Part shown: positions 641-60,777 of the stretch, in pieces
Layout: the number at the start of each line of letters is the position of its first letter
How positions within the stretch are numbered: the first letter of the stretch is position 1
IMG/VR virus record: IMGVR_UViG_3300045988_022004
DNA from: a virus
Length of the DNA: 60,777 nucleotides
Strand: one strand, 5' to 3'
Position numbers and translations under genes: made by a program
The notes under the pieces: model-generated
Database searches by the model: none
The model's input: only the letters and a program-made list of their open reading frames with translations
What the model was told of the DNA's origin: nothing

Positions 641-651
641 TGAATTCCTCC

Positions 652-1083
652 TCAATGTTTCCAAGGGCATGTGTCGTTTGGTCTCCTTATAACAGGCCCA
701 CTACGAATATTTGTATCGTGTCCGTAGTGTATTGCATTATGCGTTTGATGAGTTGTTGTCACAACGTTGTTCATGTCGAATATCATTGGGTCTCGGTTGA
801 GAACCATCTCTTTGGTAATTGGATTTATGTGATGTATCAACGGTCGGTTCTCTATCTCGTATCCTTCAACACCTAAATCACAACCGCCATCTCTGACAAT
901 TACTCTATGCCGAAACTCTCTCCATTCGCTCGATGAATATAATGCCTGATTAACCCATCGATCATAGCCGAATGTCTCGTACCCAACTGAACCTGACAGC
1001 ATTAAATATTGCAGTCGTTCTTCAAACGTAAGATACTTGATCATTTCCATATATGATCGTGACATAAGACTTGATCTACTCAT
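652..1083 (-). CDS. HNH endonuclease, of the type associated with packaging modules.
   Basis: Motif reading: GGCDLGV...IHHINPIT...NNVVTTTHQTHNAIH (H-N-H with Cys and His ligands). It lies close to the terminase genes. The start was chosen at ATG 1083. Confidence 0.75.
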   Translation of the reverse strand: MSRSSLMSRSYMEMIKYLTFEERLQYLMLSGSVGYETFGYDRWVNQALYSSSEWREFRHRVIVRDGGCDLGVEGYEIENRPLIHHINPITKEMVLNRDPMIFDMNNVVTTTHQTHNAIHYGHDTNIRSGPVIRRPNDTCPWKH

Positions 1084-39981: not shown

Positions 39982-40890
39982 TTATACTCCTTCATAGATT
40001 GTATCATTTTCAATCTTGAACTGAATACTCATTGCGCCTTCTGTAGCATTGTAAATGAAGATGTTATCTCCTTTTGACAGCTGAAACCAACTAGATCCTT
40101 TGCCTAGACAGTTTAGAATGTTTGTTGTCAGTCCAGCTCTCAATAATGTAACTGACTTTTCTCCTCGCTTAGTGTTAATGATAATATCATCTCCAGCACC
40201 ATATGCTTGTCCAGTTAAGGTCTGTATAAAGTCAGTATTTATCCTCATAACTTCACGAGTTCTAGCATTATAGATTACGATATCTTTTACCGTATCTAAT
40301 GCATGAATCGTTATTATTATGCCAACCGAAGCATCTCCTTTGTACGTTACTATATTCTCGTACATATGCACAATATCGCCGAAGTTTATGAGCTTTTCAG
40401 TTAACGAGTTGTTTTCAAATGGAAATTCAAATTTAGGATTGACGCCACTAAATAATGTAAGCGTCTTTCCATTAGTTGCATAAAAGTATGGATCTGGACA
40501 AATTACGGAAATCTGAGTTGCTTCGTGTTCCTGGAATATTGCAGGTTCATTTGACTCGACGTAACCGAAAGCGTCAAGAGATCTCTGATCCGTTACAAAT
40601 GTCAACGTGACGTATCTCTTGATAGGGAAATACTTATATGTAGTATGTCTAATAGTTTCGATGTCCGTTCCGAATCTAAAGTCCAGATCCATAACAATGT
40701 TTCTAGTTTCAAGCTTAGCACTATTGTATAATGCTCCGTCGCCGGTCGCTATCTCACTAGTATTGATCGTGGCCTTTACAGGCCCTAATCCATCGATGTT
40801 TGTTATAGCTAGACCCGAAACCTCAGGCCTAGCTAATTCCATTTCTAGGGATTCCCCTAAATAATTAGTAACAATTACTTTCTTTATCAT
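39982..40890 (-). CDS. Distal tail protein (Dit).
   Basis: Directly after the tape measure gene. Contains VTNYLGESLEMELARPEVSGLAITNIDGLGPVKATIN. Confidence 0.75.
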   Translation of the reverse strand: MIKKVIVTNYLGESLEMELARPEVSGLAITNIDGLGPVKATINTSEIATGDGALYNSAKLETRNIVMDLDFRFGTDIETIRHTTYKYFPIKRYVTLTFVTDQRSLDAFGYVESNEPAIFQEHEATQISVICPDPYFYATNGKTLTLFSGVNPKFEFPFENNSLTEKLINFGDIVHMYENIVTYKGDASVGIIITIHALDTVKDIVIYNARTREVMRINTDFIQTLTGQAYGAGDDIIINTKRGEKSVTLLRAGLTTNILNCLGKGSSWFQLSKGDNIFIYNATEGAMSIQFKIENDTIYEGV

Positions 40891-43800: not shown

Positions 43801-46800
43801 AATGTACTGTTACCGGAATTAAGAATACCATTTACAGTGTTCATGATCTTGTCGACATCAGAATTTCCAACTGATTTATTAATCGATTTCTTTATCCCCT
43901 TAACGTATCCGCTAACTGCTTTTTCTGCTTTCTTAGCGCCATCCTTTATACCTTTTCCTGCGCCTAGCAAAGCCCCTCTTCCAGCGTCGATACCTGCAAG
44001 TTCAATGTCTCCAGCTGTTGATTTAACACCTTTAACAAAACCTTCTCCAGCATAAACACCAACTTTATTGGTTTTCTTGGAAGGGGAATGCTCGTCAAGA
44101 GATTTCTTGCTCTTCATGCCCTTAAGTAATTGATTTCCTAAGGAAACGCCAGTAGAGTATACATCCGAACTCTTGTTCTTCGCCCCGCTCATAAATCCTA
44201 TAGCCGCGTTAGCTCCAGCTGTACTAAAATCTTTAGAATTAGATCTCATGCCGCTAGCAAGATTCTTAGCTAATGACGAACCTGCATCTTTGAATTTTGA
44301 ATTGTAATCCTTGAATGTGCTATTAGCGGTACTAAGAGCGCTATTTACCACTGAATTAAATCCATCGGTAGTATCTGTATCCGATTTAAATGCATCAGTG
44401 ACGTATTTCAAGAACTTCTTAGCTACGCTTGATGACGGAGACTTCATATCTTCGCTGTTATTTTTCATTCCAGTGGAAATCCACCCAACAACCTTAGAGC
44501 CAACCTTTTCAAAGTCCCCCGATTTTGATTCAAATCCATTCTGTACGGATTTTAGAGAAGTCTTACCCAAAGCCTTAAATGCTTTGTTCATATCCTTGAC
44601 TTTCTTGTCCAGTCCACCCTTAACACCGTTCAGAGAATTGATGAAATCGGACAATTGCTTAGCGATAGTTCCTGCGTTAGATGTATCAGCTCCTTTTATT
44701 GTAGTTGAAAAGCTGACAAAACTCTCACCAAATGATACAAGGTTCTTTCCGAACTTCTTTAAGCTCTCCTTGTTTCCACCAAAGAGTATGCTTTTAGCAG
44801 ATGTCGCTTCTGGAAGGTCATCGTTCAACTTCGCAACAGATGTAGCAGCAGCCGATGTAGCTGTTATAGTTGAGGTATCGATTCCGGATACTGTTTTAGA
44901 GTATTTAGCAAATGATTTACCAAATGAGACCATACTCTTACCGAAAGTCCCTAAGTCCTGAGAACCTCCGACAAACCATTCTTTCATGCCATCCAAACTC
45001 GGTATTGTTCCAGCTAATTTTGTAATTGTCATTGCTGCTGATGACGTTGCCTTTATCGATTCAGTATCAACTTTAGATACAGTGTCAGAGTATTTAGCAA
45101 ATGATTTACCAAATGAGACCATACTCTTACCGAAAGTTCCCAAATCTTCAGAGCCACCAACAAACCATTCTTTCATGCCGTCCAAACTAGGAATGGAGTT
45201 GGCAAATTCTGTTATTGTCATTGCGGCCGCAGATGTTGCTTTTACGGTTTCTGTATTAACGCCGGCCACTAGACTAGAATAAGTAGCAAATGCTGCTCCA
45301 AACGGTATAAGAGATAAACCGAATAAAGTTAAACTTTTAGATCCTGTTAATAGCTGTTTTAATCCACCAGCTTCAGGTATAGCATTTGCTAAATCAGTCA
45401 ATGTTTGTGCCGCAGAAGATGTTCCTTTGATTACCCCAGGATTTATGTTAGCAACTTCCGTAGCATACATTGCAAATGCTGCTCCAAATGGTATAAGAGA
45501 TAATCCAAAATCAGCGAGATCCTTTGTCCCGGCTAATAGCTGCGCTAATCCTCCAGATCTTGGTATGGCTTTTGCCAACTCGACTAGTGTTTTGGCCGCT
45601 ACAGCAGTGCCCTTAACTGTTTCTGGATTGACATTTGCTACTTGATCGCCATATGCTTTCATACCAGCGCCAAGATACAGTAACTGATAAGCAAATTTCT
45701 TAATTGGATCTTGGCCAAGGTTAATAAATGTTGAGATAGCATTCACAATCTCAGCTCCAGCTATTTTGACAATGCATCCTGCTAGTACAGACATAGACGA
45801 TCCTATCTCTGGTTTGACTTTACCCATCGTAGCCAAGAATGGCTGCAGTTTCTTTGCAAAGTCCGATAAGTTAGTAGCTATTTGCGGTAGTCCATCTGTG
45901 ATTCCCTGGCCAACACCGGATATAATTCCGCCGACTAACTTTCCTAAGCCTTCGCCTAGAAGTTCCATTATCTGAACTCCACCATTCATGAAATCCTGGA
46001 ATCCAGGTATCTTATTAAGACCTCCTAGTACGGCTATAATTGCTGCGAGTCCAGCAACAAATATAGAGAAACTCTCTAATGCAGATACGGCTCCAGGAAA
46101 TGGAATGGCTTGCAATATTAGCATAGATGCCGATACAGATAATAGAACCATACTTAATCCGGCTGACGCTGCTAACGATCGCTTCCAATCTAATTGAGCT
46201 AACAGCGCAATGACCCCAGTGATTTCCAAAAGAATTGCGCCAGCTAAAAGAACACTAGGCTGTACTTTTTCGACGCCAGAGAATCCTTTTAAACATAATG
46301 TAAATACACTTAAAAGCAATGATATTGCTGCTGATCCTGCTATAACTCCAGTTGGATCTAATTGAGCTAACAGCGCTATAACTCCAGCTATCTCTCCAAC
46401 AACCAAGGCAGCCACTATTACTGACTTCTTAGCGTCGATTGACACATCACCGGCTTTTATCATGGCAGACATACATAATATTATAGAATCTACAGCTGCG
46501 GTCGCTCCTGCCATTTTCGATTGATCTAGACCAGATAATACGGCAATAGCTGCAGTCAATATCAATATAGATCCAGCAACCGTTACCATCATCACACCGG
46601 CTCTAGCGGCATATTGACCAGCTTTAGCTGAAGCTTTTATTAGAGTACCAATAGGAATCATTAAAGCTATCAGATCGGCTATACATTTTGCAGTCGTCTT
46701 AAGGTCGTACCTTTGAAGCTTTTCGAATGCTTTTAATAAAACATGCAGACTAACTGTAAAACTAAGGAGCAGAACACCTGCTTTTGCGGCATTTGGTCCA

Positions 46801-49682
46801 GCTTTAGCAGATGCTTTAAATAGCAGCATCATTGTTCCGAATACCACTGCAAATTGTTTCCATCCTTTTTTCATGGAACTAAAGTCCATTTTGGAAATTT
46901 TAGACATCGCTTTTGCTAATCCATATATAGCCGCTACTGAAGCCAATAATGTAATAGCTCCTCTAGTACCACCTAGAGCATTTGCTTTTCCAACTGCGAT
47001 CATAAGTACTGATAATGATCCAACGGCTAATACCAATGCCCCAATTGTACTTCCGGCATCATCTATATAATACCCGGATAATTGTTTAAGGGCTTTAACC
47101 ATAAGTAGCAACGAAGCTGCTAATGCTACAATTTGAAGAGCTCCAGCAGCTGCTAATTTGGAATCAGCGCCCATTGTATATTTAGCTAATGCTCCAGAAC
47201 ATATAGTAATTACTCCAACTAAACCAGTAATTACTCCAATGTTAATAGCCATAGACTTGTTAATGGTCACATTTTGAAGTTTTTCTAATGCTATTGTCAT
47301 TAGCAGAATGCTTCCAGCAATAGAAATGACCATTGCAGATACACCAGAAAATCCTTTTGCTAACTTTTCTGTAGAAATAGAACCAATTGTATAAGCAAAT
47401 GCTGCTAATGCTGTTCCTAATATACCTATTAAAACAACTGCTCCTTCTACACGATCCTGAGGTAGCATGGTAAGTAAAGCTATAGACCCAACCAATATAG
47501 CGATTGCTTTCGCTATCTTAATAACTATATCAGCTTTGATTGAGTCTTGCCAGGTTTTAAGTGTTAAAGCTCCCTGGTTCATAAGCTTAATAAAACTATT
47601 ACCAATCGCTGCTGGCAAGGCAAATAAACCACCGAACCTATCGGTAAGCACTGATAATAACTTAGAGAGATTATAAAGGGCCTTTACAGAAACCCCTCCT
47701 AACAATATGGTTAAGATGTTAGCTGTATTAACCTTTCCAGATTTATCTTCAACGAAAGAAAATACACCATTAAATGTATCAATCATCGTTTTCTTAAATC
47801 CGTCTGCCTGATCGGTCCAACCTTTAAAATATCCTGTTATCTTAGACCTAAGAGAATATAATTTCGAAGTAAAAGAATCTATCGAATCTCCTGCTCCACC
47901 AAAACTCTCTTTGGCAACCGCTCCTATTCCAAGGATGGTACTGAGTAAAGCTTTGAAATCTATATGCCCAACTTCTTTACAATGATCGATAAACTCATCA
48001 ATCAGTTTTCCTGCATTTTCGCCAAAGTCTTTTATATCTGGCCACAGTGTTTTAACTATTAATTCGTCTAACAGTTTTATTACTTCCTGTGTACCTTTCC
48101 AATTCCATATCGCTTTTGCGAAATACTCAATGTTTTTGATTGAAAACGCTATTGCTGATGATATCAGATTAACGCCTTTGGCCACTACATCAGATACCTT
48201 CGCAAACTTGTCAAATTGAACGATTCCATCACCGAGAACTGCAGTAAGATCAAGTACACTATTTACAGATACTCCCAATAATTTAGAAATAATCTGTAAA
48301 GAGATTTTAAGTCCTACGCCAAGAACATTTTTAACAATTTTTATAATTGTAAACAGACCCTTTAAAGTTCGATATAATTTATCGACTTTATCTCTAGACA
48401 TTATCAGTTTCTTAGTAAAGACTTCGAATGCATCAGTTATACTCTTTATTTCTTTTGCATTCTTTTCTGGGAATATAGCCCTATAAGCAACTCTAAAGGT
48501 ATCTAATATCCCTACCGCAGATGCCATTACATTAACAAATGAACGCATTAAAGAATTTCGTCCACCCATTTTCTTCCAAGCATCTAGAGTAGCATTCTTA
48601 GCGGCAAATGTTTTTACGATGTAGTTACCGATTATATTGTCTAAGAAGCCCCAAAGTTTTTTAGATTCTTCGAAGTTACCAAATATCGTTTCCCATGTAT
48701 GTTCCCATCCAGAACCGATAGCTTCTTTCCAAGCTGCGAACATCTGCCCAGCATCTTTAAATTCTGAAGCCGCAGCATATGCTTTTTGACCAAGTTCTGT
48801 TGTTTCATCGGTATATTTGCTAAGCGTCTGAACAAGAACATCAGTAGTCATCCACTGATACTGAAGGTTATCATTCCAGTTCTTTGTAGCATTAAATGCG
48901 TCGGATGTAGCTCCTTTAGCATTCGTAGTTGTTGTATAATAGTCCTCGCCTTTTTTGACGACTGTACCTAGAGCAACGGCAGTATCAAGCAAGTTCTGTT
49001 TGAAATCCATTGTAGCCATATTCGCAACTTCGATTGATTTCCAGTCGATAAGTTTTACGTATCCAGCCGATAATGCCTGAGCAAAGTTATACATTGCGTG
49101 GGACGCCTGTTCTGCATTTGCACCAGAAATTGCTGCTTCGTTTGATACACCTTTGATTGCCGCAACTGCGTCTTTTAACCCAACACCAGCATTCGTAAAT
49201 TTTCCAATATTTGCGGTCATGTCTGAGAACGAATAAATAGTTCTATCCGAGTACGTATTAAGTTCGTCAAGATACTTATTTACCGTAGACAAACTTTCTC
49301 CAGTGGACATAATAATTGTCTGAATAGAGTTCATCTTTAATTTATATTCGTTCCAACCATCGGACATACCATCAAAAGCTAAAGCCGATACTATTTTTTT
49401 GCCTGCGTCAACAGCTGCATTTGTAAGTCGATTCAACACACTCATAACTACGGTATCCATAGCTGAGAATTTGACTTGAACTGCTTCTACCGCTCTGCCC
49501 ATTCCGTCCATGTTGAACTTTTTAGTCTCATTTTGAAATTTAGCAAGACTCTTTCCAGACTCACTAAAGTCGATGCTTTTCTTAAGAGCTTCTATAGATT
49601 TTTGACTTTGACGAATTTTTTTCTCGAATTGTCCATTCTCAAATTGCATTCGAACAACGTCGTCTTCAACAACTTTACCCAT
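40887..49682 (-). CDS. Tape measure protein, 2931 aa.
   Basis: The ATG at 49682 follows AAGGAGGTCACTGGATA. It has coiled-coil regions, a central block of many hydrophobic helices, internal repeats, and sits between the chaperones and Dit. Confidence 0.9.
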   Translation of the reverse strand: MGKVVEDDVVRMQFENGQFEKKIRQSQKSIEALKKSIDFSESGKSLAKFQNETKKFNMDGMGRAVEAVQVKFSAMDTVVMSVLNRLTNAAVDAGKKIVSALAFDGMSDGWNEYKLKMNSIQTIIMSTGESLSTVNKYLDELNTYSDRTIYSFSDMTANIGKFTNAGVGLKDAVAAIKGVSNEAAISGANAEQASHAMYNFAQALSAGYVKLIDWKSIEVANMATMDFKQNLLDTAVALGTVVKKGEDYYTTTTNAKGATSDAFNATKNWNDNLQYQWMTTDVLVQTLSKYTDETTELGQKAYAAASEFKDAGQMFAAWKEAIGSGWEHTWETIFGNFEESKKLWGFLDNIIGNYIVKTFAAKNATLDAWKKMGGRNSLMRSFVNVMASAVGILDTFRVAYRAIFPEKNAKEIKSITDAFEVFTKKLIMSRDKVDKLYRTLKGLFTIIKIVKNVLGVGLKISLQIISKLLGVSVNSVLDLTAVLGDGIVQFDKFAKVSDVVAKGVNLISSAIAFSIKNIEYFAKAIWNWKGTQEVIKLLDELIVKTLWPDIKDFGENAGKLIDEFIDHCKEVGHIDFKALLSTILGIGAVAKESFGGAGDSIDSFTSKLYSLRSKITGYFKGWTDQADGFKKTMIDTFNGVFSFVEDKSGKVNTANILTILLGGVSVKALYNLSKLLSVLTDRFGGLFALPAAIGNSFIKLMNQGALTLKTWQDSIKADIVIKIAKAIAILVGSIALLTMLPQDRVEGAVVLIGILGTALAAFAYTIGSISTEKLAKGFSGVSAMVISIAGSILLMTIALEKLQNVTINKSMAINIGVITGLVGVITICSGALAKYTMGADSKLAAAGALQIVALAASLLLMVKALKQLSGYYIDDAGSTIGALVLAVGSLSVLMIAVGKANALGGTRGAITLLASVAAIYGLAKAMSKISKMDFSSMKKGWKQFAVVFGTMMLLFKASAKAGPNAAKAGVLLLSFTVSLHVLLKAFEKLQRYDLKTTAKCIADLIALMIPIGTLIKASAKAGQYAARAGVMMVTVAGSILILTAAIAVLSGLDQSKMAGATAAVDSIILCMSAMIKAGDVSIDAKKSVIVAALVVGEIAGVIALLAQLDPTGVIAGSAAISLLLSVFTLCLKGFSGVEKVQPSVLLAGAILLEITGVIALLAQLDWKRSLAASAGLSMVLLSVSASMLILQAIPFPGAVSALESFSIFVAGLAAIIAVLGGLNKIPGFQDFMNGGVQIMELLGEGLGKLVGGIISGVGQGITDGLPQIATNLSDFAKKLQPFLATMGKVKPEIGSSMSVLAGCIVKIAGAEIVNAISTFINLGQDPIKKFAYQLLYLGAGMKAYGDQVANVNPETVKGTAVAAKTLVELAKAIPRSGGLAQLLAGTKDLADFGLSLIPFGAAFAMYATEVANINPGVIKGTSSAAQTLTDLANAIPEAGGLKQLLTGSKSLTLFGLSLIPFGAAFATYSSLVAGVNTETVKATSAAAMTITEFANSIPSLDGMKEWFVGGSEDLGTFGKSMVSFGKSFAKYSDTVSKVDTESIKATSSAAMTITKLAGTIPSLDGMKEWFVGGSQDLGTFGKSMVSFGKSFAKYSKTVSGIDTSTITATSAAATSVAKLNDDLPEATSAKSILFGGNKESLKKFGKNLVSFGESFVSFSTTIKGADTSNAGTIAKQLSDFINSLNGVKGGLDKKVKDMNKAFKALGKTSLKSVQNGFESKSGDFEKVGSKVVGWISTGMKNNSEDMKSPSSSVAKKFLKYVTDAFKSDTDTTDGFNSVVNSALSTANSTFKDYNSKFKDAGSSLAKNLASGMRSNSKDFSTAGANAAIGFMSGAKNKSSDVYSTGVSLGNQLLKGMKSKKSLDEHSPSKKTNKVGVYAGEGFVKGVKSTAGDIELAGIDAGRGALLGAGKGIKDGAKKAEKAVSGYVKGIKKSINKSVGNSDVDKIMNTVNGILNSGNSTFSDQMDKTTKDIIKNANKTGAGVTSAYDATSKKIASKSKKNSKKAKIKMTKIIKVAYQFGKTFDKAVSSFNKTPYETITKISKSLGKELLKTTPKLKTLSKATKTAEKTIKNFAIALYKESDQYKEDTKSVKQHEAALKKLLKTQDRLKKGLSASGKKLNKKNLNSAIKENNTAIKNAVKQLKEDQKSIQSNINSTFKEYRNNIINSIKEYTKFTNIAFDNSRNIFSEFSDSMDDEMSTVLKNMESQVEGYQEMKDNLAQAAKKGLSKGLIDTLKGMGESGYAYIKLFANASKEEIDRANTAYAEASKQSKEDIIASYKKTYQDAVKWKNSIKKMLNQGWDIRLVQELVDEGPGNLSKVLEMLTFSDEERKEINNVYVKNLKLQKSGANDIIKSFALKKEKEAAKKKAKKNVKKTAKEVKKDVKEIPNAVSEAAKEMEKNLKKINNDWDDAKKKIEDTAKSMAESVKSSLDSFTSFANFDISSSTDYFTRYEEVVNDLGNDTIIDRMWSQVNAEKRVIEGIEELRKMNFADGLLDYLKSLGTQAIPYIEGFRLATADQIERTNAVFKEKMQMTKDQILQQAKDNMESVKKWRDEIVVLSKDLDPRLLQELINKGLDGADIVDAYFQMTPEEKKQINQYYKDTLSMNEEVSKEVSDSYKEAGLGAVNSMYQGMIDAATGKATSSKKGSSRNLKGSAATKTVNAVAKSFGEALNTNTSFKSSGKKAGGQFKAGIDSTADSVAKSAKKSAKNACSTFTNYVETNFKKAFKSAGESMGTRFAIGLSSSSVLSTVEASCKAVVNKALSEFGKGSGKAGSKGTSLGNSFANGIKGAIPSAVSAAQALVDAVNAVLSKIRMPTLSANVNTSNLSSIVSGTVATATGSSAAGTSAGLAASIASGIAGSVFGKGSGLSKALAALQNGGRGKTGRALKGSSTNVTNNYTFNQTNNSPVALSNTEIYRQTKNQFSQLKGALK
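44690..45700 (-). repeat. About six tandem 62-63-aa (186-189 bp) repeats inside the tape measure gene.
   Basis: Two adjacent units are near-identical (SLDGMKEWFVGGS(E/Q)DLGTFGKSMVSFGKSFAKYS); their DNA is offset by 189 bp. The boundaries are approximate. Confidence 0.75.
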
Positions 49683-50056
49683 TATCCAGTGACCTCCTTC
49701 CAAGCATCTTTAGCTAGCCTATCAAATACCGGTTTTAAAGCCGGGTTAATATAGTCAACCCCCTGAACATATCCACCATTTCTAGTTCCATGCCCATATT
49801 GTAGAATAATAGCTATATTCACATGGTTCACTACATTAGAATTTTTAAACACTAAACTTATAGATCCGTTATCGCGCACTATTTCATAATACCACGATGC
49901 AGCTGTTACTCCTGTTGATACCGGAGTTGCAGCCTTGAGGGCGGCTACGCCTTCACGTCCGTACTTATTTAATATACCGACGTTAACGCCTTCCAAAAGC
50001 TTTTCGAAATAATTATCGAGCTTTTTAAAATTGCCCTCAAGTTTGCATCTGATCAT
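49682..50056 (-). CDS. HK97 gp10-like tail-completion / neck protein.
   Basis: ATPVSTGVTAASW...ILQYGHGTRNGGYVQG.DYINPAL pattern. Confidence 0.5.
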   Translation of the reverse strand: MIRCKLEGNFKKLDNYFEKLLEGVNVGILNKYGREGVAALKAATPVSTGVTAASWYYEIVRDNGSISLVFKNSNVVNHVNIAIILQYGHGTRNGGYVQGVDYINPALKPVFDRLAKDAWKEVTG

Positions 50057-50070
50057 GTCATTCTCCTTTA

Positions 50071-51000
50071 TTACACTAATTCAGAAATTTCTACAAATCC
50101 TGTATACTTCTTTCCCTTAATAGTTACTACGCACAGTAACCATACCGACTTTTTGTACTTGTTGAAATATCCGTAGCACTCAACCTTTCTTCCAGCAGGA
50201 ATCTCAACCATTAGCTTTTTGTTCCATCCGGCATCAATACGCATAGGTGTTTTATTAGAAGTTTTATAAGCCTTCTTATAAGAATCACTCACATAAGCTG
50301 CTGAACATGTAGTAGTAGCCAGACCACACGGAGTGTTGATTACTGCGTTTACTTCTTTTATAACCGCTGTAACATTGTAATGCTTTGCTTTAAGATTCGA
50401 TTTGTAATCTTCTCCCCATTGACCAGCGATCACTTCTCTTGCTACTGTTTTAATATCTTTACCAACACGGCGATGAGTGCTAGTGCTAATCTTTGACTGA
50501 TCCACATCGTATTTCGGTGTGATAAATCCTCTTATGAATTTACCATTGATGCTGACTGTCCTCTTCTTAACAGAATCTTTATAATTACCTTCTGTTACGA
50601 CAAAGTAGCCTTCATTCCTGTTAACATAGGTAACCATTCCCACATGCTTTGGTGTTCCTTTGTTGTCTCCAATCCCATTATCCTTCCAATCATAAAGACA
50701 CGCATCTCCAATTTTAGGGATGTAACCATCATTCTCTTTCCAGCAACCAATTTTCTGAGCCTTTTTAATAAGATAATAACAGCTGCACTCAACTGGCATG
50801 ATATCAGTATATCCAAGGGCAATTGCTACTGCAGACCAAGTTGTAGCGCACCACGCCATTCCAGGCTTCATAGTAACACCTCTTGGTTTCGTTTTCTGTT
50901 TGTTGTAAATATCAAGAATGGATTTATAAGATCCATCTTTTTCGTTTTTGCCAACCCAAGAATTAATAAGGTTAACAGCCGCTTTTCGTGTTCTGGCCAT
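50071..51000 (-). CDS. Peptidoglycan hydrolase: cysteine peptidase (CHAP / NlpC-P60-like) plus a C-terminal SH3b-like wall-binding domain.
   Basis: GMAWCATTWSAV (Cys), PKHVGMVTYV (His), VVTEGN, and a C-terminal beta-rich stretch of about 70 aa. The ATG at 51000 follows AAAGGGGTGACATT. Confidence 0.65.
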   Translation of the reverse strand: MARTRKAAVNLINSWVGKNEKDGSYKSILDIYNKQKTKPRGVTMKPGMAWCATTWSAVAIALGYTDIMPVECSCYYLIKKAQKIGCWKENDGYIPKIGDACLYDWKDNGIGDNKGTPKHVGMVTYVNRNEGYFVVTEGNYKDSVKKRTVSINGKFIRGFITPKYDVDQSKISTSTHRRVGKDIKTVAREVIAGQWGEDYKSNLKAKHYNVTAVIKEVNAVINTPCGLATTTCSAAYVSDSYKKAYKTSNKTPMRIDAGWNKKLMVEIPAGRKVECYGYFNKYKKSVWLLCVVTIKGKKYTGFVEISELV

Positions 51001-51004
51001 AATG

Positions 51005-51565
51005 TCACCCCTTTGTGTGTAATTCTTTTTTTCTTCGTTCATTTTCTTTCTTTTGCCATCTACGGATTTCTTCATTGGTCATTTTCTTAGGAGGATTTGT
51101 TTTTACTGCGTACAACTCTATGAGCATAAAAACGCGTCTAATATTCCATTTCTCACAGGGATCAAATGGTATTCTAGCCATAGCTAAGTAAGCATATATT
51201 AGCTCGCTTGTTAATGTCTCCGGTTTCCCTTTATCGTCATCACCAATTGTAAAAACCCTAGATGCTGTAGCTGGGTCATCGATATAGTCAATTATTTTTT
51301 TAAGTAAACTATCATCAAGTCGCTTAAAAAACTCAACCTTATCAAAAGACCCAACTATCATACAGTACATATAATCAAGAAACTCTTCGTCGGTTAGAGT
51401 TCCCTCATCCATAGATTTCAATAATGGTTTATGCCATACTTGCTCCCATTTTGAAATTGCTATTAGGGAATGCTCGAGCTTAATCTTAGTAGGTTTTACA
51501 ACCTTCCCAAAAGTTTGAGTTTCTTGATCAAACGGCTCATATCCAGGAAGAATTAATTCGAGCAT
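51005..51565 (-). CDS. Tail assembly chaperone-like protein (Gp15-like).
   Basis: Called from its position between the major tail protein and tape measure genes. It has its own RBS. Confidence 0.4.
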   Translation of the reverse strand: MLELILPGYEPFDQETQTFGKVVKPTKIKLEHSLIAISKWEQVWHKPLLKSMDEGTLTDEEFLDYMYCMIVGSFDKVEFFKRLDDSLLKKIIDYIDDPATASRVFTIGDDDKGKPETLTSELIYAYLAMARIPFDPCEKWNIRRVFMLIELYAVKTNPPKKMTNEEIRRWQKKENERRKKELHTKG

Positions 51566-53882: not shown

Positions 53883-55745
53883 TTAGTTGCCGCTCTGACC
53901 AGCTACCTTACTAAGGTCTGCTGTTGCAATCTTTGTCTCGATAGCAATAGCTGATAATGGTTTAATCAGTGCTCCAGAGATACGTGTCTCGATAAGGTAC
54001 TTCTGAGCGTTGTAGTCAATGTCGAAATCGTCGAACATATTGATAGCGCCGCCCTTGTCCGCACCAATGTTGTAGTCCTGCAGGTTTACAATGATACCCT
54101 GAAGAGCCAGTGTGTCAGTCTTGTCTACACGTGTGAGACCTTCCATAACCGGAACAGAAACAATCTTGGATACACGGCATGCTGTAGCCAGCTTCTCAAT
54201 GTTGTCGTAGATGATACGTCCGTTCTTATCCTTCAGCAGTAAGCACTCTGTAATGATTGACTCTGGAGCGAACAGTTTTGGATTACCCGAACCCTTGTAC
54301 TCGATACGTGCTCTTACGCAGGCCTCGATAAATGCTGTAGCCTTCTCAGCTGCGGTTGTTTCTTTCGTGATTGCAATAGGATACTTGATTGTGTAGAGAT
54401 CAGCATCTTTCCAGATAGGACGAATGTTGTCCTCTTTGATGTGATCATCGCTGGATGTAAGACGTCCATCACCAACCAGGACTGCTCTTGCAATTTCCTC
54501 GTTCAGCATCATTCTCATTTCTGCTTTAAGCCAAACGATTACATCGAAATCTGTAATATCGATAACATCATCACGGTCAATCTTCTGCTTCTTGTAGATT
54601 GTCTGCGGAGTGGTTGTTCTCTTCAGTAATGAGAATACTTCCTCCTTCTTGAGCTTACCTTTGATATAACCTCTTGCCCGGGCTTCGTCCTCTCTCAGGT
54701 CTGCGAACGTAGACTTGATTCTTGAGAATGGTGTGTGGTGTACTCCGTTCATTACTTCGGTTACCCATCCCTGATCTCTTGCAATGAAATCTGGCGGTGT
54801 GTTTAAATTTTTGGCATCCGGGAACAGGTACTCAATATTTGTAATACCATGAGCAAGGAATGATTCTTTCATAGAACCATATCTCTTACCGTCCTCGATA
54901 ATCTCCTGCATTTCGCTGTGGGACAGAACGTCTCTGTTGTCTGTATTGTTGCCTTCGAATAAGTTATGTGCGATTGCACCCATGTCGTCATCCTCCTCTT
55001 CATATTCTTCGGAATCGTCATCATCTTCGTCAGGATCTTCGACGTCCTCATCATCCTCTTCGTCAGGATCTTCGACGTTCTCATCATCCTCGTCTTCATA
55101 CTCTTCGTCCTCGTAATCATCGTTTTCGAGAGCACTAGGGTCTTCCGCTAATGCGCTTCCTACAGCTGCGTAGAAAGCATCTTGCTGTTCTGGTGTCATC
55201 GTATCGACGACATCTTGAATACTCTTGTTAGCCACTTCGTCTTCTCCTTCCTCATTAGAGTGCATAAGTTCAAGATACTCTCCTGAGTAAATATACGCCT
55301 CATAATCATCATTGTCGATTGTATCGCCATGCGCTAAGGCAACATCTTCAATATATGCGCCTGGATTTGCTCCTGCAAGAACAAGGCTTAATTCCTTAAT
55401 TTCGCCATGCTGAACATACGGTCCACGCTGCTGAAGATGATTCGCCCAAATACTAAGCGAATCCATATCTCCATGCTGAACTGCATACCTAGCGATCCTA
55501 GCATTATCCGAATCATTGAAGTATCCGTAGGCATACACGCCTTCATCACGGCATTCCATATAAGCATGTCCAAGCACGCTATTGACACTGTTGTGATCAT
55601 GGTTATACACCAACGGTACTTTAGTGCCATCGATGTCGTCGAAAGCACCATGCTGAATAATTCTTCCGTCAGCACAAAGGATACCAAACTTTGTAGCCCA
55701 GCCCTTAAAGTCGCAATCGGCATACTTTGAGCGTTTAGCTCCCAT
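53883..55745 (-). CDS. Fusion of an HK97-type prohead protease, a poly-acidic linker and the major capsid protein.
   Basis: N-terminus: VPLVYNHDHNSVNSVLGH...DSLSIWAN (His/Ser protease motifs). A D/E-rich linker of about 50 aa spans about nt 54990-55140. The C-terminal region of about 370 aa is capsid-like. Confidence 0.75.
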   Translation of the reverse strand: MGAKRSKYADCDFKGWATKFGILCADGRIIQHGAFDDIDGTKVPLVYNHDHNSVNSVLGHAYMECRDEGVYAYGYFNDSDNARIARYAVQHGDMDSLSIWANHLQQRGPYVQHGEIKELSLVLAGANPGAYIEDVALAHGDTIDNDDYEAYIYSGEYLELMHSNEEGEDEVANKSIQDVVDTMTPEQQDAFYAAVGSALAEDPSALENDDYEDEEYEDEDDENVEDPDEEDDEDVEDPDEDDDDSEEYEEEDDDMGAIAHNLFEGNNTDNRDVLSHSEMQEIIEDGKRYGSMKESFLAHGITNIEYLFPDAKNLNTPPDFIARDQGWVTEVMNGVHHTPFSRIKSTFADLREDEARARGYIKGKLKKEEVFSLLKRTTTPQTIYKKQKIDRDDVIDITDFDVIVWLKAEMRMMLNEEIARAVLVGDGRLTSSDDHIKEDNIRPIWKDADLYTIKYPIAITKETTAAEKATAFIEACVRARIEYKGSGNPKLFAPESIITECLLLKDKNGRIIYDNIEKLATACRVSKIVSVPVMEGLTRVDKTDTLALQGIIVNLQDYNIGADKGGAINMFDDFDIDYNAQKYLIETRISGALIKPLSAIAIETKIATADLSKVAGQSGN

Positions 55746-55763: not shown

Positions 55764-57008
55764 TTATTGTTCTTCTGTTTCCTCGTCAGCAGAATCTGTA
55801 TTATACATCTGATCCAATTCAGCATTAGACGCTGAAATATTGTTGTTCGTCAACATGTCTGCCTTCGGATCATCTACTGGCCTTAAACCAATTACTTGAC
55901 GGAACTCATTGGATGTCATGATACAGTTTCTTGTGAACTTGTCAGCAAGCTCTGCAAGATTTGTAGTAGATACCAGTTTGAATGGGTCCCTGAAATATTT
56001 AATGGCATGTCCTTGTGTGCGTGCTGTCTTTGTTAAGAACTTTCTGTTCATTTCATCAACGACCGCAGCGAGTATCGGTTCGATTATACGATTGTAATAA
56101 TTGTTCATCGTATTCTCGTCTGCTGTACCATTAAGAATCTCCATTGTCATTCCTAACTGAGAGAATAACAAATTCGTGAAGTACTCAACCTGTTTAAGCA
56201 GATTGTTTTCAATCGAACGATTAAGCTGAGTGACATGCTCGGTTGAGTCTATGTAAGCGACTCCATATTTAGAGCTTGCCAATTGTTCAGCAAGCTCTTT
56301 ACGACGTTCTCTAGCCTGAGCTTTTCTTGCTTCAGACTTAATCGTGTATGGCAACTGAATAATCAAATCAAGTTTATCAGACCCGCTTCTATCGTCTATG
56401 AAATCGAGAATCGACAGTTTCCGTTTAAGTCGATGAGCTGTCGAATTCTGTTCATTCATGATTGCATAAAATGGATTCTCAACTATCGCTACTGTTTTCT
56501 TTGGTAGATCGAGTTCCTCGAATTGTCCAGTATGATCATTGTATATTCGCACTCTGACAGCGCGAGGATACCAATTGATTATCTTAGCTGTACGCATCGA
56601 TTGAATATCATAAACGTTTCCATGTACAGGGTCCATAGTCGTATCGACAGGAACTATAGCCACACATCCTTCGTCAAGAAGTTTCAGTACAATATCCTGT
56701 TTAAATGCACGAGATGTCTGATCAATATTAGCTTCTGTTGTAAGACAATAGTTAAGCCCATCTTCCACATTATCCGTAAACCTTTTATTATCATCCAACA
56801 TAACATGCTCTATATCGACTGCAGCAACGTCTGTTGACATCTTATTGTATATCGTTGTAATAATCGATCGTTCGTTTCCCATCGTCAGTCTAGGACGAGA
56901 TGGGTTATCATAGCTAACTGCACCAAGACCAGTTCCATACGAATATGGTGTCGGATCTTTGTTCATAAATGCATTCCAGCCATGCTTTAATCTGTTAATA
57001 AAACCCAT
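55764..57008 (-). CDS. Portal protein.
   Basis: 414 aa with an acidic C-terminus, located between the TerL region and the protease-capsid gene. Confidence 0.7.
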   Translation of the reverse strand: MGFINRLKHGWNAFMNKDPTPYSYGTGLGAVSYDNPSRPRLTMGNERSIITTIYNKMSTDVAAVDIEHVMLDDNKRFTDNVEDGLNYCLTTEANIDQTSRAFKQDIVLKLLDEGCVAIVPVDTTMDPVHGNVYDIQSMRTAKIINWYPRAVRVRIYNDHTGQFEELDLPKKTVAIVENPFYAIMNEQNSTAHRLKRKLSILDFIDDRSGSDKLDLIIQLPYTIKSEARKAQARERRKELAEQLASSKYGVAYIDSTEHVTQLNRSIENNLLKQVEYFTNLLFSQLGMTMEILNGTADENTMNNYYNRIIEPILAAVVDEMNRKFLTKTARTQGHAIKYFRDPFKLVSTTNLAELADKFTRNCIMTSNEFRQVIGLRPVDDPKADMLTNNNISASNAELDQMYNTDSADEETEEQ

Positions 57009-57019
57009 ATGCTATCTCC

Positions 57020-58078
57020 TTATTTAGTAAGGTAATTCAGATAAGCCTTTCCAGCTCTCTTTGCTCTGTTGAAAGTGTTACGTGCTTTTCTAACTTTCTT
57101 CTTTGCTGCTTTGTATGCTTTATTAGCATCTCTAGAAACACTGTTAATTTTCTTCTTTGCTGACTTGTATGCCTTATTGACATCTTTAGAAACGCTGTTG
57201 TATTTCTTCTTAGCCGATGAAATGTATGGTCTAGCGTCATTACTCAGCTTCTGACCAGCTCTACTAAGCTTATACTCTGCTTTTGATTTAACTGAGTTTG
57301 CCTTGTTACGAACTTCTGCAGAAGTAACCACACGGTCTCTAGCAGTTGACGTAGCTTTTCTGGCTGTCTTATAAGCACCAGTCTTCTTAACATCTCTAGC
57401 AAGTTTCTGTCCAGCTCTGGTAATCTTATACTCGCCTTTAGAAACTATTGATCTTGCTTTTGCTCTTGCGGCATTTGCTGTAGGTGACTTGGCTGCCTTA
57501 CTTACAAGATATTTTGTAGCTGCCATTTTGGCTGCAGCATCCCTAGTAGCTACTTTTGTAGCAAACTTAGCAGCTTTCTTGACTTTCGTCGATGGGGCAT
57601 TCTGCTTTTTGACGTTAGCTGCAATTTGCTTCATCTGCCTATCCTGTTTCTTCTTAAGCATATCAGCATTTTTCTTAGCTATGGTATGTGCATTCATTGC
57701 TCTTACACGTTTTTGAAAATCCTTTTCATGCTGAGCCTTCTGTGCCTGGATTGCATCAGTAGGTCCCTTGTAAAGGTTAGCTTTCTTACGCCGTTCCATT
57801 TCTACATGCTTTTTCTGCTGAACAGGCCCCTGCTTTACCCAAGAAGTAGGTGTGCCAGTTTCACTAACCTGCTTATCTTTAAAAGCATAATGCTTCTGAG
57901 CCTTCTGTGCACGCATTGCAGATGTCGGACCTTTATATGGCGCAGATGATTTTTTTACATCTTCTGGGTAAACGTACTTACCATTTTTTATGTACAAGTA
58001 TTTGTGCTTTTTCCAGCTATGCTTGAGAACAGTGTTACCATCCTCGTCTGTGGCTTTATAATATACGGAATCGCTCAT
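57020..58078 (-). CDS. Highly basic Lys/Ala-rich repeat protein.
   Basis: 352 aa from ATG 58078. It has three kinds of internal duplicate: YKGPT.A.QAQKAQ, SK.EYK..RAGQKL and KKK.NSVS.D.NKAYK.AKKK. Confidence 0.65.
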   Translation of the reverse strand: MSDSVYYKATDEDGNTVLKHSWKKHKYLYIKNGKYVYPEDVKKSSAPYKGPTSAMRAQKAQKHYAFKDKQVSETGTPTSWVKQGPVQQKKHVEMERRKKANLYKGPTDAIQAQKAQHEKDFQKRVRAMNAHTIAKKNADMLKKKQDRQMKQIAANVKKQNAPSTKVKKAAKFATKVATRDAAAKMAATKYLVSKAAKSPTANAARAKARSIVSKGEYKITRAGQKLARDVKKTGAYKTARKATSTARDRVVTSAEVRNKANSVKSKAEYKLSRAGQKLSNDARPYISSAKKKYNSVSKDVNKAYKSAKKKINSVSRDANKAYKAAKKKVRKARNTFNRAKRAGKAYLNYLTK

Positions 58079-58079
58079 A

Positions 58080-58637
58080 TTACCATCCTTTCTGTTTCTT
58101 TCTAAATTTTTGAACGTATTGCTTTCCACGTATGGAAGCTAACTCAGTATCCACTGTTTTCTTCTTTTCTGCAGTTTTTGTTGTTCGCCGTTTGATAGAT
58201 TCGGCTTTCTTGGTATACTTAGCTGCTTTCTTTCCATAACGATTTGCTTTCTTTCTAGCTCGTTCAGCTTTTTGAAGATTACCAGTGTATCCTATATCCG
58301 TAAGAGCATGATCACGCTTAATACGTTTTGACTCTTCTTTTTCTTTGAACTTAACTCGTTTGGCCATAGCTTCCGAAGCTTTTCGTTCATAATTCGAGAT
58401 ACGAGATTTTGTCTTCGCAGAGTTTTGTTTCTTCATTTGAGAGGCAAGCCGATTGGATTTTGATTCGAGGTGTGACGCTCTTCTTCCGGAATGCTGGTAC
58501 GGTTCTTTTCCTGATCCATACTTATAACGACCAGATCTTCTTGGCAAACCGTAATGCTCAAGATGGAGACCATCTAAGTCTGAATGAACTAGTGATATTG
58601 TTCCATCCTCATTCTTTACTTTTACGTACATAGCCAT
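58080..58637 (-). CDS. Basic protein with the HYGLPRRSGRYKYGSGKEPYQ motif.
   Basis: Track ORF; motif at nt 58494-58556. Confidence 0.7.
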   Translation of the reverse strand: MAMYVKVKNEDGTISLVHSDLDGLHLEHYGLPRRSGRYKYGSGKEPYQHSGRRASHLESKSNRLASQMKKQNSAKTKSRISNYERKASEAMAKRVKFKEKEESKRIKRDHALTDIGYTGNLQKAERARKKANRYGKKAAKYTKKAESIKRRTTKTAEKKKTVDTELASIRGKQYVQKFRKKQKGW

Positions 58638-58642
58638 TACTC

Positions 58643-60385
58643 CTATTCAAATGCGTCTTTGTTTACTTTATAAGCAACAAATGCATCCATCAATGCTGAT
58701 ACATTATCGATTTTGTCTTCGTAACGTTTCTTATACAGCTTTCTGTTTCCGTTTGTATCTTCCAATGTTATACAATGACCCATACAGAAACTCATCAAAG
58801 ATTCGTCGAATATCAACATTCTCATTTCTGATAATTTCTTAATTTCTCCGAGAGGAACTGTTTCAGTTCTAACACCCTGCGGAACTTTCTCAATACCAAA
58901 TGATCCATTCTCCTGAGCCCATCTTTCAATAAACTCTTTGGCATTATACGGATCGTATCCTAACGAGCAAACATCGTATTGTGAATCTATTATGAATTTG
59001 TCTAGATCTTCATATACGTCTTGCACATTAATGATACTTCCTTCCATAACAATAAGAGTACCTTCATCGATAAACTCTTGGTACTTTTGTCTCATTGCTA
59101 AGTTCAACTTACTAAGTGTAAGTGTAGTTATGTAACTTCTAACTTTAACGCCAAACATTCCATTTCGCAATGGGAATAAGAATGTAAATGCACAGAAGTC
59201 ATCACCTTGGGAAAGGTCTGCTCCCATCGAACACTGCATTTTCCAAAAGCTTCTGCGATGATGTGGAAGCGTTTCTTCGTATGAGAAGAAATATGTGTAT
59301 CCCTCCATAGGAATTCCGAAACGTTTTGCCAGAATATCATTTCTTGTAGCAGGTGCTTTCTCAGCTCGTTCAACATCTTGCTGGATTGTCTCATAGCTGA
59401 CTGTGATCGGTAGGTTAGGATTAGCCTTAGGCCACATGTCCGGGTCTCCAACTTCATCCACGCTGTCAAGCCTGTAATACCAAATACTAGTGTGCCAGTT
59501 CTGGTATTCACCTTTGAGAATATCCATCAGTTCCATTTTGATGGCATCTCCACATCCATTACGGACGGTACCTTCCGAACTTACAGCTAAGATTACATAT
59601 CCATCTATTTTGGCTGCACCCTGCTCAATAGCACCAATTGGATCTTCTCTCAATTCACCTGAGAGCCACTCATCAACTGTTGCTACCTTTACTCGTAATC
59701 CCTGAAGCTTATTAATACTCAGGGGTCTTATCTCTAGTAACGAATCTGTAAGAAAGTTCTGTATACCCTTTTTGGTACATGCAAGCTTAACGCGGTTCGC
59801 TTTGGAACCGGTAGTATTTTGAATAGAGCCTTCTGTCAAGAATTTGAACATAGGTCCTCTCGATCTTGCTATGGCAGTGCTAATTGCACTTGTAACCTCT
59901 TCGGCCTGTTTCATTGTTGGGGCTGTTGTGATCTGATGTGTCGTTGTTGTATCGACTGTCAGAAAATAAGCTTGCACTAAACTCTCGTATAACGATTTTG
60001 CATTACTTCGAGAAATAATAAGATACTGTTTGTTGACAAGGCGCTTTTTGACTGATTTCCTTACGAAATGTCCGCCTCGTCCAGAAGCATTTGGTTCGTA
60101 TACGGTTTTCTCAACGTAATAGAACCAACCAAATAATTGCTCTCCCCAAAGTTTAAACGTATCCAACAGTTCCAAGTCGGACCCGTCGGTCAAGACCATT
60201 TCGGATTCACAGAAAGCAATCCAACCTTCTACAGCATTGTCATCATAGTATACACCGGGGTTAGCTATCAGCCAATCAATACGGTTCATCTCCATAGAGA
60301 TCTCCCTGTTAACAGGGATCTCGCCATTCAGAACTTTATCTCGGAACTCCCCGTAGTACCTAGGCGTTGCCGTATTGCTTAGCAT
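58643..60385 (-). CDS. terL: Terminase large subunit (Terminase_1-like).
   Basis: 580 aa. Contains ISRSNAKS, ATVDEW (Walker B-like), GADLSQGDDFCA, GYDPYNAKEF and KIDNVSALMDA. Confidence 0.85.
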   Translation of the reverse strand: MLSNTATPRYYGEFRDKVLNGEIPVNREISMEMNRIDWLIANPGVYYDDNAVEGWIAFCESEMVLTDGSDLELLDTFKLWGEQLFGWFYYVEKTVYEPNASGRGGHFVRKSVKKRLVNKQYLIISRSNAKSLYESLVQAYFLTVDTTTTHQITTAPTMKQAEEVTSAISTAIARSRGPMFKFLTEGSIQNTTGSKANRVKLACTKKGIQNFLTDSLLEIRPLSINKLQGLRVKVATVDEWLSGELREDPIGAIEQGAAKIDGYVILAVSSEGTVRNGCGDAIKMELMDILKGEYQNWHTSIWYYRLDSVDEVGDPDMWPKANPNLPITVSYETIQQDVERAEKAPATRNDILAKRFGIPMEGYTYFFSYEETLPHHRRSFWKMQCSMGADLSQGDDFCAFTFLFPLRNGMFGVKVRSYITTLTLSKLNLAMRQKYQEFIDEGTLIVMEGSIINVQDVYEDLDKFIIDSQYDVCSLGYDPYNAKEFIERWAQENGSFGIEKVPQGVRTETVPLGEIKKLSEMRMLIFDESLMSFCMGHCITLEDTNGNRKLYKKRYEDKIDNVSALMDAFVAYKVNKDAFE

Positions 60386-60394
60386 TTACATCAC

Positions 60395-60688
60395 CTACTT
60401 CTTTTTCTTTTTCGTGCTCTTTGTTTCAGCTTTAACTGCTTCATTGATCATCTTCTGAGCGGCAGCATTGAGTTTACCCTTGATATAAACTTTTCCTTGT
60501 TCTTTTACAACTTCTGTAACTGCAGGAACAATAATATCTTTCATAGCTTTATCAACTAACTTCTTTGGCAACGGCTGCTTTTGTGGATGATTTTTAAGAT
60601 ATGTAGCTTCCATACTATCTCTAGTATTTATTCGTCTAAGCTCTTCATCGGATAAAGTTTTTACATATGCTTTTTCATTTCTGTATTT
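60395..60688 (-). CDS. 3' part (97 codons plus stop) of the junction-spanning HYG-motif gene.
   Basis: In frame with 273..1 across the closure point. Lys-rich C-terminus. Confidence 0.8.
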   Translation of the reverse strand, partial: KYRNEKAYVKTLSDEELRRINTRDSMEATYLKNHPQKQPLPKKLVDKAMKDIIVPAVTEVVKEQGKVYIKGKLNAAAQKMINEAVKAETKSTKKKKK

Positions 60689-60777
60689 GTTTTTTTGTTT
60701 CTTTTTCTCAAGCTGGACTGCTTTAGTTCTTTCTCTTCGTTTATAATTTTGTTTTTCAGCCCCACTCTTTTTAGAAA
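60689..60777. repeat. Second copy of the 89-bp closure repeat.
   Basis: Identical to 1-89. Confidence 0.95.

Follow-up and report, generated by a model that had tools for sequence, protein, structure and literature searches.

A short N-terminal peptide shared by terminase-flanking proteins and a polymerase-like enzyme of a siphovirus, a candidate tag for loading into the head

Why should three otherwise unrelated proteins of one phage carry the same peptide near their N-termini? The question is raised by the IMG/VR virus record IMGVR_UViG_3300045988_022004, a stretch of 60,777 nucleotides (the window), in which the 21-residue motif HYG(L/T)PR(R/H)SGRY(K/P)(W/Y)GSG(K/D)(D/E/N)PYQ, referred to below as the tag, occurs three times. 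Two of its carriers, proteins A and B, are encoded on either side of the gene of the large terminase subunit (TerL), and the third, protein C, is an enzyme resembling RNA polymerases. On balance, and judging from sequence comparisons, we lean towards a portable tag by which its carriers would be incorporated into the head and delivered, in which case the polymerase would be a virion enzyme.

Three copies of one peptide

The three copies were confirmed at the positions given in a first-pass annotation, and all of them lie on the minus strand: at 58494–58556 in protein B (residues 28–48, HYGLPRRSGRYKYGSGKEPYQ), at 136–198 in protein A (residues 26–46, HYGLPRRSGRYKWGSGKDPYQ) and at 4764–4826 in protein C (residues 6–26, HYGTPRHSGRYPWGSGDNPYQ). 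A reading of the three intervals on the plus strand was rejected, as the translation is nonsense and the genes are on the minus strand. Protein B (58080–58637, minus strand; 185 amino acids) occupies the slot directly downstream of TerL (58643–60385, minus strand; Pfam TerL_nuclease and TerL_ATPase, phrog_9), which stands between the two tagged genes. Protein A (188 amino acids) occupies the slot directly upstream, with its 5' part at 1–273 and its 3' part at 60395–60688, both on the minus strand; it starts with the ATG at 273, runs through base 1 and ends with the stop codon at 60395, the same stop as in the open reading frame (ORF) listing. This protein had been described as junction-spanning, and it really is, because bases 60689–60777 are an exact repeat of bases 1–89 and the 89-base terminal repeat closes the contig into a circle. 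The true length of the phage genome is 60,688 bp, with a G+C content of 39% and all long ORFs on the minus strand. The isoelectric points of A and B, 10.0 and 10.4, agree with their earlier description as basic proteins.

Pairwise BLASTP comparisons gave E-values of 8e-16 (A–B), 5e-11 (A–C) and 6e-11 (B–C), each referring to one single comparison, and chance is therefore excluded as the source of the shared tag. Outside the tag no convincing similarity among A, B and C was found in these comparisons, and to call the carriers otherwise unrelated is fair. Over the 21 codons of the tag, A and B differ by 12 synonymous and 2 amino-acid changes (47/63 nucleotides identical), A and C by 10 and 5 (42/63), and B and C by 13 and 6 (34/63). 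Synonymous changes predominate between the copies in all three pairs, so that selection acts on the peptide and not on the DNA, and the view that the peptide is selected, rather than left over from a recent duplication, is borne out. The same synonymous divergence rules out an element acting at the level of DNA or RNA.

Protein C (2142–4841, minus strand; 899 amino acids) is a two-barrel RNA-polymerase-like enzyme with a GADFDGD loop and helix-turn-helix (HTH) domains, the latter matched in Pfam. It matches phrog_4291 ('RNA-dependent RNA polymerase') over its full length with 1191 bits and shares 44–50% of its residues with proteins from some 250 cultured phages that infect Arthrobacter, Gordonia, Streptomyces, Rhodococcus, Curtobacterium, Microbacterium, Lactococcus and Faecalibacterium; at least 8000 metagenomic protein clusters are homologous to it. 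A nucleotide search with the polymerase gene against 50,697 phage genomes gave no match. The catalytic loop GADFDGD lies at residues 502–508, of which D504, F505, D506, G507 and D508 are invariant among 60 homologues. An AlphaFold model based on these 60 homologues has a mean predicted local distance difference test (pLDDT) score of 80.8, and a Foldseek search with it against the PDB retrieved QDE-1 (2j7n, E 8e-9), the Thermus phage polymerase P74 gp62 (8f5m, E 7e-7), plant RDR2 (7eu1_M, E 1e-3), bacterial beta-prime subunits and crAss gp66 (6vr4, E 0.08), with low template modelling scores of at most 0.38. A sequence search of the PDB with protein C found nothing. The invariant loop and the fold matches therefore support the label of DPBB polymerase that the enzyme had received, and the catalytic loop and predicted fold support a putative two-barrel RNA polymerase of the QDE-1/YonO-like single-chain branch.

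A preprint (bioRxiv 10.1101/842583) has put forward an HTH-containing putative RNA polymerase as a hallmark of a supercluster that unites phages of Actinobacteria and Firmicutes, among them Lactococcus phage 1706 and Faecalibacterium phages. In the parts of that preprint available to us, the DxDGD motif and the HTH domains are covered and an N-terminal tag is not mentioned. Protein C is a full-length member of this family by its 44–50% identity to the Arthrobacter, Gordonia and Streptomyces phage proteins. The HTH region of protein C (residues ~730–899) gave weak matches to sigma-70 region 4 and to the small-terminase family phrog_309, and the HTH region of its homologue in phage 1706, ORF75, gave weak matches to sigma-70 region 4, Terminase_5 and Phage_terminase.

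In the alignment of the 60 polymerase homologues, tag residues H6, G8, S13, G14, R15, Y16, G19, S20, G21 and Q26 are invariant, and the tag is conserved at the same level as the catalytic loop. Residues 1–27 of the model have pLDDT values below 50 and no secondary structure, and they form its sole long segment below 50. Such invariance together with disorder is characteristic of linear motifs that become folded upon contact with a partner. The possibility that the tag belongs to an enzymatic domain, considered in the first-pass annotation, is not borne out, as the tag lies in a disordered leader although its residues are invariant; the predicted structure supports a portable linear tag.

Relatives of the tag and their cargo

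In cultured relatives, the proteins at the positions of A and B carry HYGVxGMKWG and match PF23847 (DUF7211), a 25-residue motif ('xDxLxHYGVxGMKWGVRR') to which no function is assigned in Pfam. Two copies are present in Arthrobacter phage Correa gp07, one in Correa gp09, two in Lactococcus phage 1706 ORF7 and one in FP_oengus gp69; Correa gp09 is one of the positional counterparts of B that carry the DUF7211 tag. Alignments of 259 tags of the kind found on the polymerase (polymerase-type) and 50 tags of the DUF7211 type were compared with hhalign, which gave a probability of 95.1% and a score of 29.8 over 'xDxLxHYG(V/T/M)(K/P)', the first 10 columns only; the scores of 60 column-shuffled controls were 7.2 ± 2.3, with a maximum of 16.2. 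A protein with two polymerase-type tags (P0127) reached 30.4 bits against the DUF7211 model, above the Pfam gathering cut-off of 27 bits, and a single such tag 19.5 bits. Placed side by side by eye, the two flavours (HYG-LPRRS-GRY-KWG-SGKDPYQ and HYG-VK-GM-KWG-VRRYQ) differ by small insertions.

On these sequence grounds, the window motif is considered a polymerase-family variant of the DUF7211 motif. Both have the same acidic leader, the Leu, the HYG half and the G...WG core, and both are found near the N-terminus of small basic proteins, in the slots on both sides of TerL and in the same cargo architectures. In the window variant, PRRS is inserted after HYG and before the G, WG is preceded by one additional residue and the tail SGxxPYQ is added, and outside the window lineage the polymerase-type variant is confined to the polymerase. 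The motif is thus not private to the three proteins but a flavour of a Pfam family. A covalent cross-link site is ruled out for the tag, since neither Lys nor Asn is conserved across both flavours.

A tblastn search of the 50,697 phage genomes with the tag gave 249 records, essentially the polymerase-holding set, with one match per record at the N-terminus of the polymerase; only the gut contig MT835616 has two. With the DUF7211 consensus, 589 sites in 233 phage genomes were found, and their genus distribution is almost exactly that of the polymerase-holding set, partly because of common ancestry. A profile of the three window copies matched 1570 representative protein clusters at E ≤ 1e-3, polymerases and A-like proteins among them, and a homologue search with the DUF7211-type motif returned only fragments of 35–77 residues.

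Loci recovered with the tag, 80 from IMG/VR and 80 from bacterial genomes, were then scanned. Their conserved order is exonuclease, tagged polymerase, HNH, connector, tagged ORF(s), TerL, tagged ORF(s) and portal, with one to five tagged genes around TerL per locus. The slots beside TerL hold tagged proteins in 75 of the 76 loci that reach TerL. Among the IMG/VR loci, the strict tag is present beside TerL in 28/30, one has a GQKWG variant and one contig ends early; among the bacterial-genome loci, 35/46 have the strict tag and the remaining 11/11 the variant HHG(I/V)xGQKWG. This sub-variant, with Gln for Met, belongs to one Clostridia prophage group (loci L119, L123, L126, L127, L130, L131, L139, L143, L150, L159, L161 and L061). 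The bacterial matches are prophage-like regions in Clostridia (Blautia faecis, Clostridium leptum, [Ruminococcus] torques and Eubacterium ramulus) and in Actinobacteria (Actinomyces and Collinsella). Rhodococcus phage ReqiPepy6 has eight tagged genes, including all seven between TerL and portal, with HYGVKGMKWG at residues 10–15.

All distinct full-length polymerases (136/136) have a tag of the polymerase type, whose median start is residue 11.5. The same type is present in both A and B at ten loci, all of them close relatives of the window, and the other loci have the DUF7211 type in these slots. No scanned locus mixes the flavours within the packaging module, and no GMKWG-type tag is present anywhere in the window. 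The sharing of a tag between the polymerase and the packaging proteins, pointed out in the first-pass annotation, is real, but it is general to the whole phage supercluster and not special to this phage. Special to the window lineage is only that A and B carry the polymerase-type variant.

Protein A has more than 500 homologues, among which the tag is conserved, and both A and phage 1706 ORF7 match phrog_7021. A and B consist of the tag and a basic linker, to which A adds a conserved LSxxEL helix and a C-terminal helix. Pfam searches and the predicted model of A, with long low-confidence helices and the tag region in coil, revealed no recognisable cargo domain in A or B, and the only Pfam or NCBIfam matches by which A, B or protein D (described below) could be named were weak ones, to CsgA for A and to SH3BP5 for D. 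BLASTP aligned A with Correa gp07 through both tags, with a gap of 4 residues, and the alignment extends to the LSxxEL helix that both possess; the second element common to the two proteins reads LSDEELRRINTRDSMEATY and MSNAELREITTRMQLEKQF, respectively, and the second conserved element of A spans residues 92–127 (window 60577–60684, minus strand; KYRNEKAYVKTLSDEELRRINTRDSMEATYLKNHPQ). When B was compared with Correa gp09, and A with phage 1706 ORF7, only the tag was aligned by BLAST. Homology of the protein body to relatives is supported by sequence for A only, through Correa gp07 and phrog_7021. Throughout the supercluster, proteins encoded upstream of TerL have a helix of the form '(L/M)SxxEL...R(L/M)xxExx(Y/F/L)' behind their last tag (Correa gp07, phage 1706 ORF7, P0121, P0124, P0125, P0128, P0239 and P0264). 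This helix has the look of a fixed anchor module that would receive tags and cargo on its N-terminal side.

A metagenomic protein of 208 amino acids (P0141) has the N-terminal element of B (NEDGSKTLVHSDL) joined to the N-terminal region of A (DDVRDFLVDNRELLNDHLAHYG...), before a single tag, and this fusion therefore indicates recombination between the leaders of slot-A and slot-B genes.

In 173 distinct non-polymerase carriers, the median start of the tag is residue 14, and 163/173 have it within the first 50 residues. Unrelated cargo follows. Two proteins in slot A, between connector and TerL, carry polymerase-type tags: P0128, with tag, papain-fold toxin/glutamine deamidase, tag and anchor, and P0239, with tag, GNAT acetyltransferase, tag and anchor. 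The two flavours are therefore interchangeable in the same architecture. P0264, another protein with polymerase-type tags that the profile of the window copies retrieved, has a CW_7 cell-wall-binding repeat. Among the DUF7211-type carriers, Gordonia phage Secretariat gp15 is composed of tag, GNAT, tag and papain-fold toxin, and ReqiPepy6 gp13 and Secretariat gp12 of a LigT-like 2H phosphoesterase, tag and anchor; two further proteins (L027 and L105) have the tag and then a papain-fold toxin, and one (L111) has DUF5662, tag and DUF6883. The tagged gp8 of Arthrobacter phage Sporto is annotated 'amidase'; its gene directly follows the terminase and is distinct from that of lysin A. In a further set of 35 tagged proteins, all ≥230 amino acids long, papain-fold toxin 1 was found in 6/35, Ntox50 in 1/35, DUF5662 in 5/35 and DUF6883 in 1/35. 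A short terminal peptide on otherwise unrelated proteins, as in cargo loading, is what was found here, as had been proposed from the window: the tag is N-terminal in most carriers and, in relatives, precedes unrelated cargo beside TerL and portal. A constant N-terminal module with variable toxins, as in polymorphic-toxin trafficking, is present in relatives and not in A and B of the window.

In some Clostridia prophages, ORFs with the order DUF5662–tag–DUF6883 (L111:1887-2858, similar in L117, L119, L120 and L126) lie ~7 kb upstream of the polymerase gene, outside the packaging module, with the tag internal at ~residue 180.

Protein D (57020–58078, minus strand, with its ATG at 58078; ~352 amino acids, isoelectric point 10.5) is encoded between B and portal and carries a different short N-terminal motif, HSWKKHKYLYIKNGKYVYPED (57968–58006). 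B and D share an N-terminal '(N/D)EDG(T/N)xxLxHS' element. A motif similar to that of D (HSAKGSxWKDHKYIRKENGVYxYAED) heads both genes between TerL and portal at one other locus (L089), and one is present in P0264. On these few sequences, the motif of D may be a third flavour of the tag and a fourth, divergent copy in the window.

Possible functions of the tag

If the tag serves head incorporation and delivery, it would dock its carrier to a phage-encoded partner inside the assembling head, possibly the portal, possibly the protease–capsid fusion with its inner face or scaffold portion. This fusion of a head maturation protease with the major capsid protein (53883–55745, minus strand; phrog_3270, E 1e-204) would be a candidate receptor or processing enzyme for the tag; such a fusion has also been described in the related Arthrobacter clusters AM and AU (PMC5513430). 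The tagged proteins would be built into the virion and would leave with the DNA at infection. The ~100-kDa polymerase-like enzyme would then be a virion polymerase for the first wave of transcription and the other tagged cargo first-strike effectors, and A and B, basic, elongated and helical, would be the minimal, cargo-less form of the toxin and enzyme carriers of relatives.

Such a tag is consistent with a peptide that is disordered and yet invariant, N-terminal, interchangeable between flavours and attached to cargo of the polymorphic-toxin type. It is also consistent with the carriers placed around TerL and portal, with the polymerase gene beside the morphogenesis genes, just upstream of them and co-oriented, and with two 'structural' labels in phage 1706. 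In the GenBank record of this Lactococcus phage, both ORF75, the polymerase homologue with HYGTKRHSGRYPWGSG at residue 24, and ORF7, the slot-A protein with two DUF7211 tags, are labelled 'structural protein', and 'putative' marks those functions there that are merely predicted. As the gene of ORF75 is a long way from the morphogenesis genes, we infer that its label reflects detection in virions. The study of phage 1706 by Garneau and colleagues from 2008 is said to have used sodium dodecyl sulphate–polyacrylamide gel electrophoresis (SDS-PAGE) and liquid chromatography–tandem mass spectrometry (LC-MS/MS). The 'structural' notes in ReqiPepy6, including that of the polymerase gp106, are by similarity only. 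The virion evidence for tagged proteins from phage 1706 is suggestive rather than clean.

Several points weigh against a delivery tag. A folded 100-kDa enzyme would have to make its way out through a siphovirus tail. The proteomic hint consists only of the GenBank label of a 39–44%-identical homologue. Two more proteins of phage 1706 (EU081845.1), ORF62 and ORF71 (L093:33053-33331 and L001:2020-2373), are also labelled 'structural protein'; they are small, are encoded among replication genes and have no tag, and the preparation may have contained non-structural proteins, or there may be further ways into the virion. Because the whole supercluster shares its ancestry, the joint occurrence of tag and polymerase across phages is confounded. 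No Pfam DUF7211 match was obtained for A, B, C or 31-residue tag segments, even with E up to 10. Tags are sometimes internal, with 7/173 starting beyond residue 100, and multi-cargo proteins have one ahead of every module, an arrangement that would suit processing as much as docking.

Peptides of comparable design are known. The capsid-targeting sequence of phage T4, a short N-terminal peptide on the unrelated proteins IPI–III and Alt, directs them to the prohead, from which they are injected with the DNA; it binds a separate scaffolding core and is removed by gp21. The window tag is likewise short, N-terminal and carried by unrelated proteins, with no sequence similarity to it. Cargo-loading peptides of encapsulins are short, are found on diverse enzymes encoded beside an HK97-fold shell gene, dock to the interior of the shell and are usually C-terminal. 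The tag is likewise a short conserved linear peptide on diverse enzymes, of unrelated sequence, whereas an encapsulin is a cellular nanocompartment without ejection. MuF (SPP1 gp7-like) head proteins are fused to polymorphic toxin domains, and MuF is a folded domain of >100 residues. In relatives of the window, papain-fold toxin 1 and Ntox50 are likewise found on a head-associated module beside portal and terminase, which is instead a linear motif of ~20 residues; no MuF-like gene was recognised in the window.

Virion RNA polymerases are delivered with the genome by N4 (gp50) and the crAss-like phage phi14:2 (gp66, PDB 6vr4). To our knowledge, a phage-carried single-chain RNA polymerase has so far been established only for N4-like, crAss-like, jumbo and P23-45-like phages, and we know of no short targeting tag described for the virion polymerases of N4, crAss-like phages or P23-45. 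The gp66 and P23-45 enzymes are two-barrel enzymes like protein C, and P74 gp62 and 6vr4 were both retrieved in the fold search; protein C differs in being an enzyme of ~100 kDa with HTH domains that would be packaged by a siphovirus. The polymerase of Thermus phage P23-45 is fused to the tape measure protein, according to the available parts of a preprint (bioRxiv 10.1101/2022.12.01.518664).

We found no open-access paper that prints either motif or mentions DUF7211, and the tag motif is not mentioned in the available parts of Klyczek et al. 2017 (PMC5513430). The polymerase family and DUF7211 are already on record, each separately. The link between the polymerase N-terminus and DUF7211, the modularity of the cargo behind the tag and the replacement of one flavour by the other in the window lineage appear to be undescribed.

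Extended to the whole Firmicutes/Actinobacteria siphovirus supercluster, with thousands of gut phage and prophage lineages, the proposal would be that one ~20-residue peptide, in its DUF7211 and polymerase-type variants, is a general head-loading and injection tag for any carrier; this wider claim is tentative, and we hold it with less confidence than the delivery of the window proteins. Should the tag indeed serve for loading, siphoviruses that are common in gut and soil would bring their own single-chain RNA polymerase into the cell and co-inject changeable effectors, such as toxins, acetyltransferases, RNA-repair or nucleotide-signal-degrading phosphoesterases and wall hydrolases. DUF7211 and hundreds of 'hypothetical' genes around the terminase in actinobacteriophage collections would acquire a function, the place of the polymerase gene beside the morphogenesis genes would be explained, and a transplantable handle of ~20 residues would be available for packaging foreign proteins into phage capsids. 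Even a mere processing or assembly motif would stand for an interaction that is conserved within a very large group of phages and easy to test.

Among the alternatives, a tag that is mainly a recognition or cleavage site of the head maturation protease, marking propeptide or polyprotein boundaries while targeting is done by something else, fares best, and we consider it unlikely. Each module has its own tag in Secretariat gp15 (tag–GNAT–tag–toxin) and in P0128 and P0239 (tag–cargo–tag–anchor), the tag, never at residue 1, comes after a leader that is short, acidic and variable, with a Leu conserved at position −2 relative to the His, and the phage encodes a protease fused to its capsid protein, all of which would suit a cleavage site. 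Cleavage, however, needs few residues, and some 20 conserved ones including several Gly, Trp and Tyr would rather be expected of a peptide that binds; for processing inside the head, the substrate has to enter first. By analogy with the T4 capsid-targeting sequence, which is both, a protease site would be partly compatible with a delivery tag.

A slightly lower probability is given to an interaction in assembly or packaging, with terminase, portal or DNA, that involves no delivery to the host. Protein A would then be similar to a small terminase subunit (TerS) or a scaffold, and the polymerase would join complexes of replication or packaging within the infected cell. For a purely intracellular role of this kind, toxin, acetyltransferase, phosphoesterase and amidase cargo make little sense, and the 'structural' label of the slot-A protein of phage 1706 would be unusual for a TerS. 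It is true that A occupies the usual slot of the small terminase and that no TerS was recognised among the window proteins with Pfam and PHROG profile searches; A, B and D are also very basic, long helices like those of scaffolding proteins are predicted for A, and the HTH regions weakly match small-terminase families (phrog_309 in the window enzyme, Terminase_5 and Phage_terminase in the 1706 homologue).

It is quite improbable, in our estimate, that the tag serves to bind a conserved factor of the host cell and bring it to several phage proteins; the RNA polymerase of the host, a chaperone, or a system for secretion or degradation would be examples. This possibility, also named in the first-pass annotation, draws on the fact that disordered invariant linear motifs often bind cellular hubs. 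The carriers, however, are concentrated beside TerL and portal, up to eight tagged proteins are present in one phage, and the core residues do not differ between phages of Actinobacteria and Firmicutes, whose shared conserved elements are their own structural genes. We also know of no host-binding motif that resembles the tag.

Practically no credence is left for three copies that are by-products of recent duplication or gene conversion without a function of their own: A and B do share 47/63 nucleotides, but this is refuted by the predominance of synonymous differences in every pair, by the invariance of the tag in the 60 homologues of a polymerase family with thousands of members and by its conservation in the >500 homologues of A and the 1570 clusters that match its profile.

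Gene neighbourhood in the window

On the minus strand, the order of the genes in the window is exonuclease, protein C, a few small genes, HNH, a connector-like structural protein, A, TerL, B, D, portal, protease–capsid fusion and tail genes. The connector-like virion structural protein (266–670, minus strand; Pfam Phage_connect_2, phrog_4247) is encoded immediately upstream of A and is a conserved marker of synteny. The portal protein is encoded at 55764–57008 (minus strand; Pfam Phage_portal, phrog_12). The tape measure protein (window 40887–49703) has 2938 amino acids, and matches to tape-measure families cover only ~its first 880 residues and the region ~1650–1970. An endolysin-like gene (phrog_5182; window 50071–51075) separates the tail assembly genes from that of the tape measure protein; in the related Arthrobacter clusters, the lysin is encoded upstream of the terminase.

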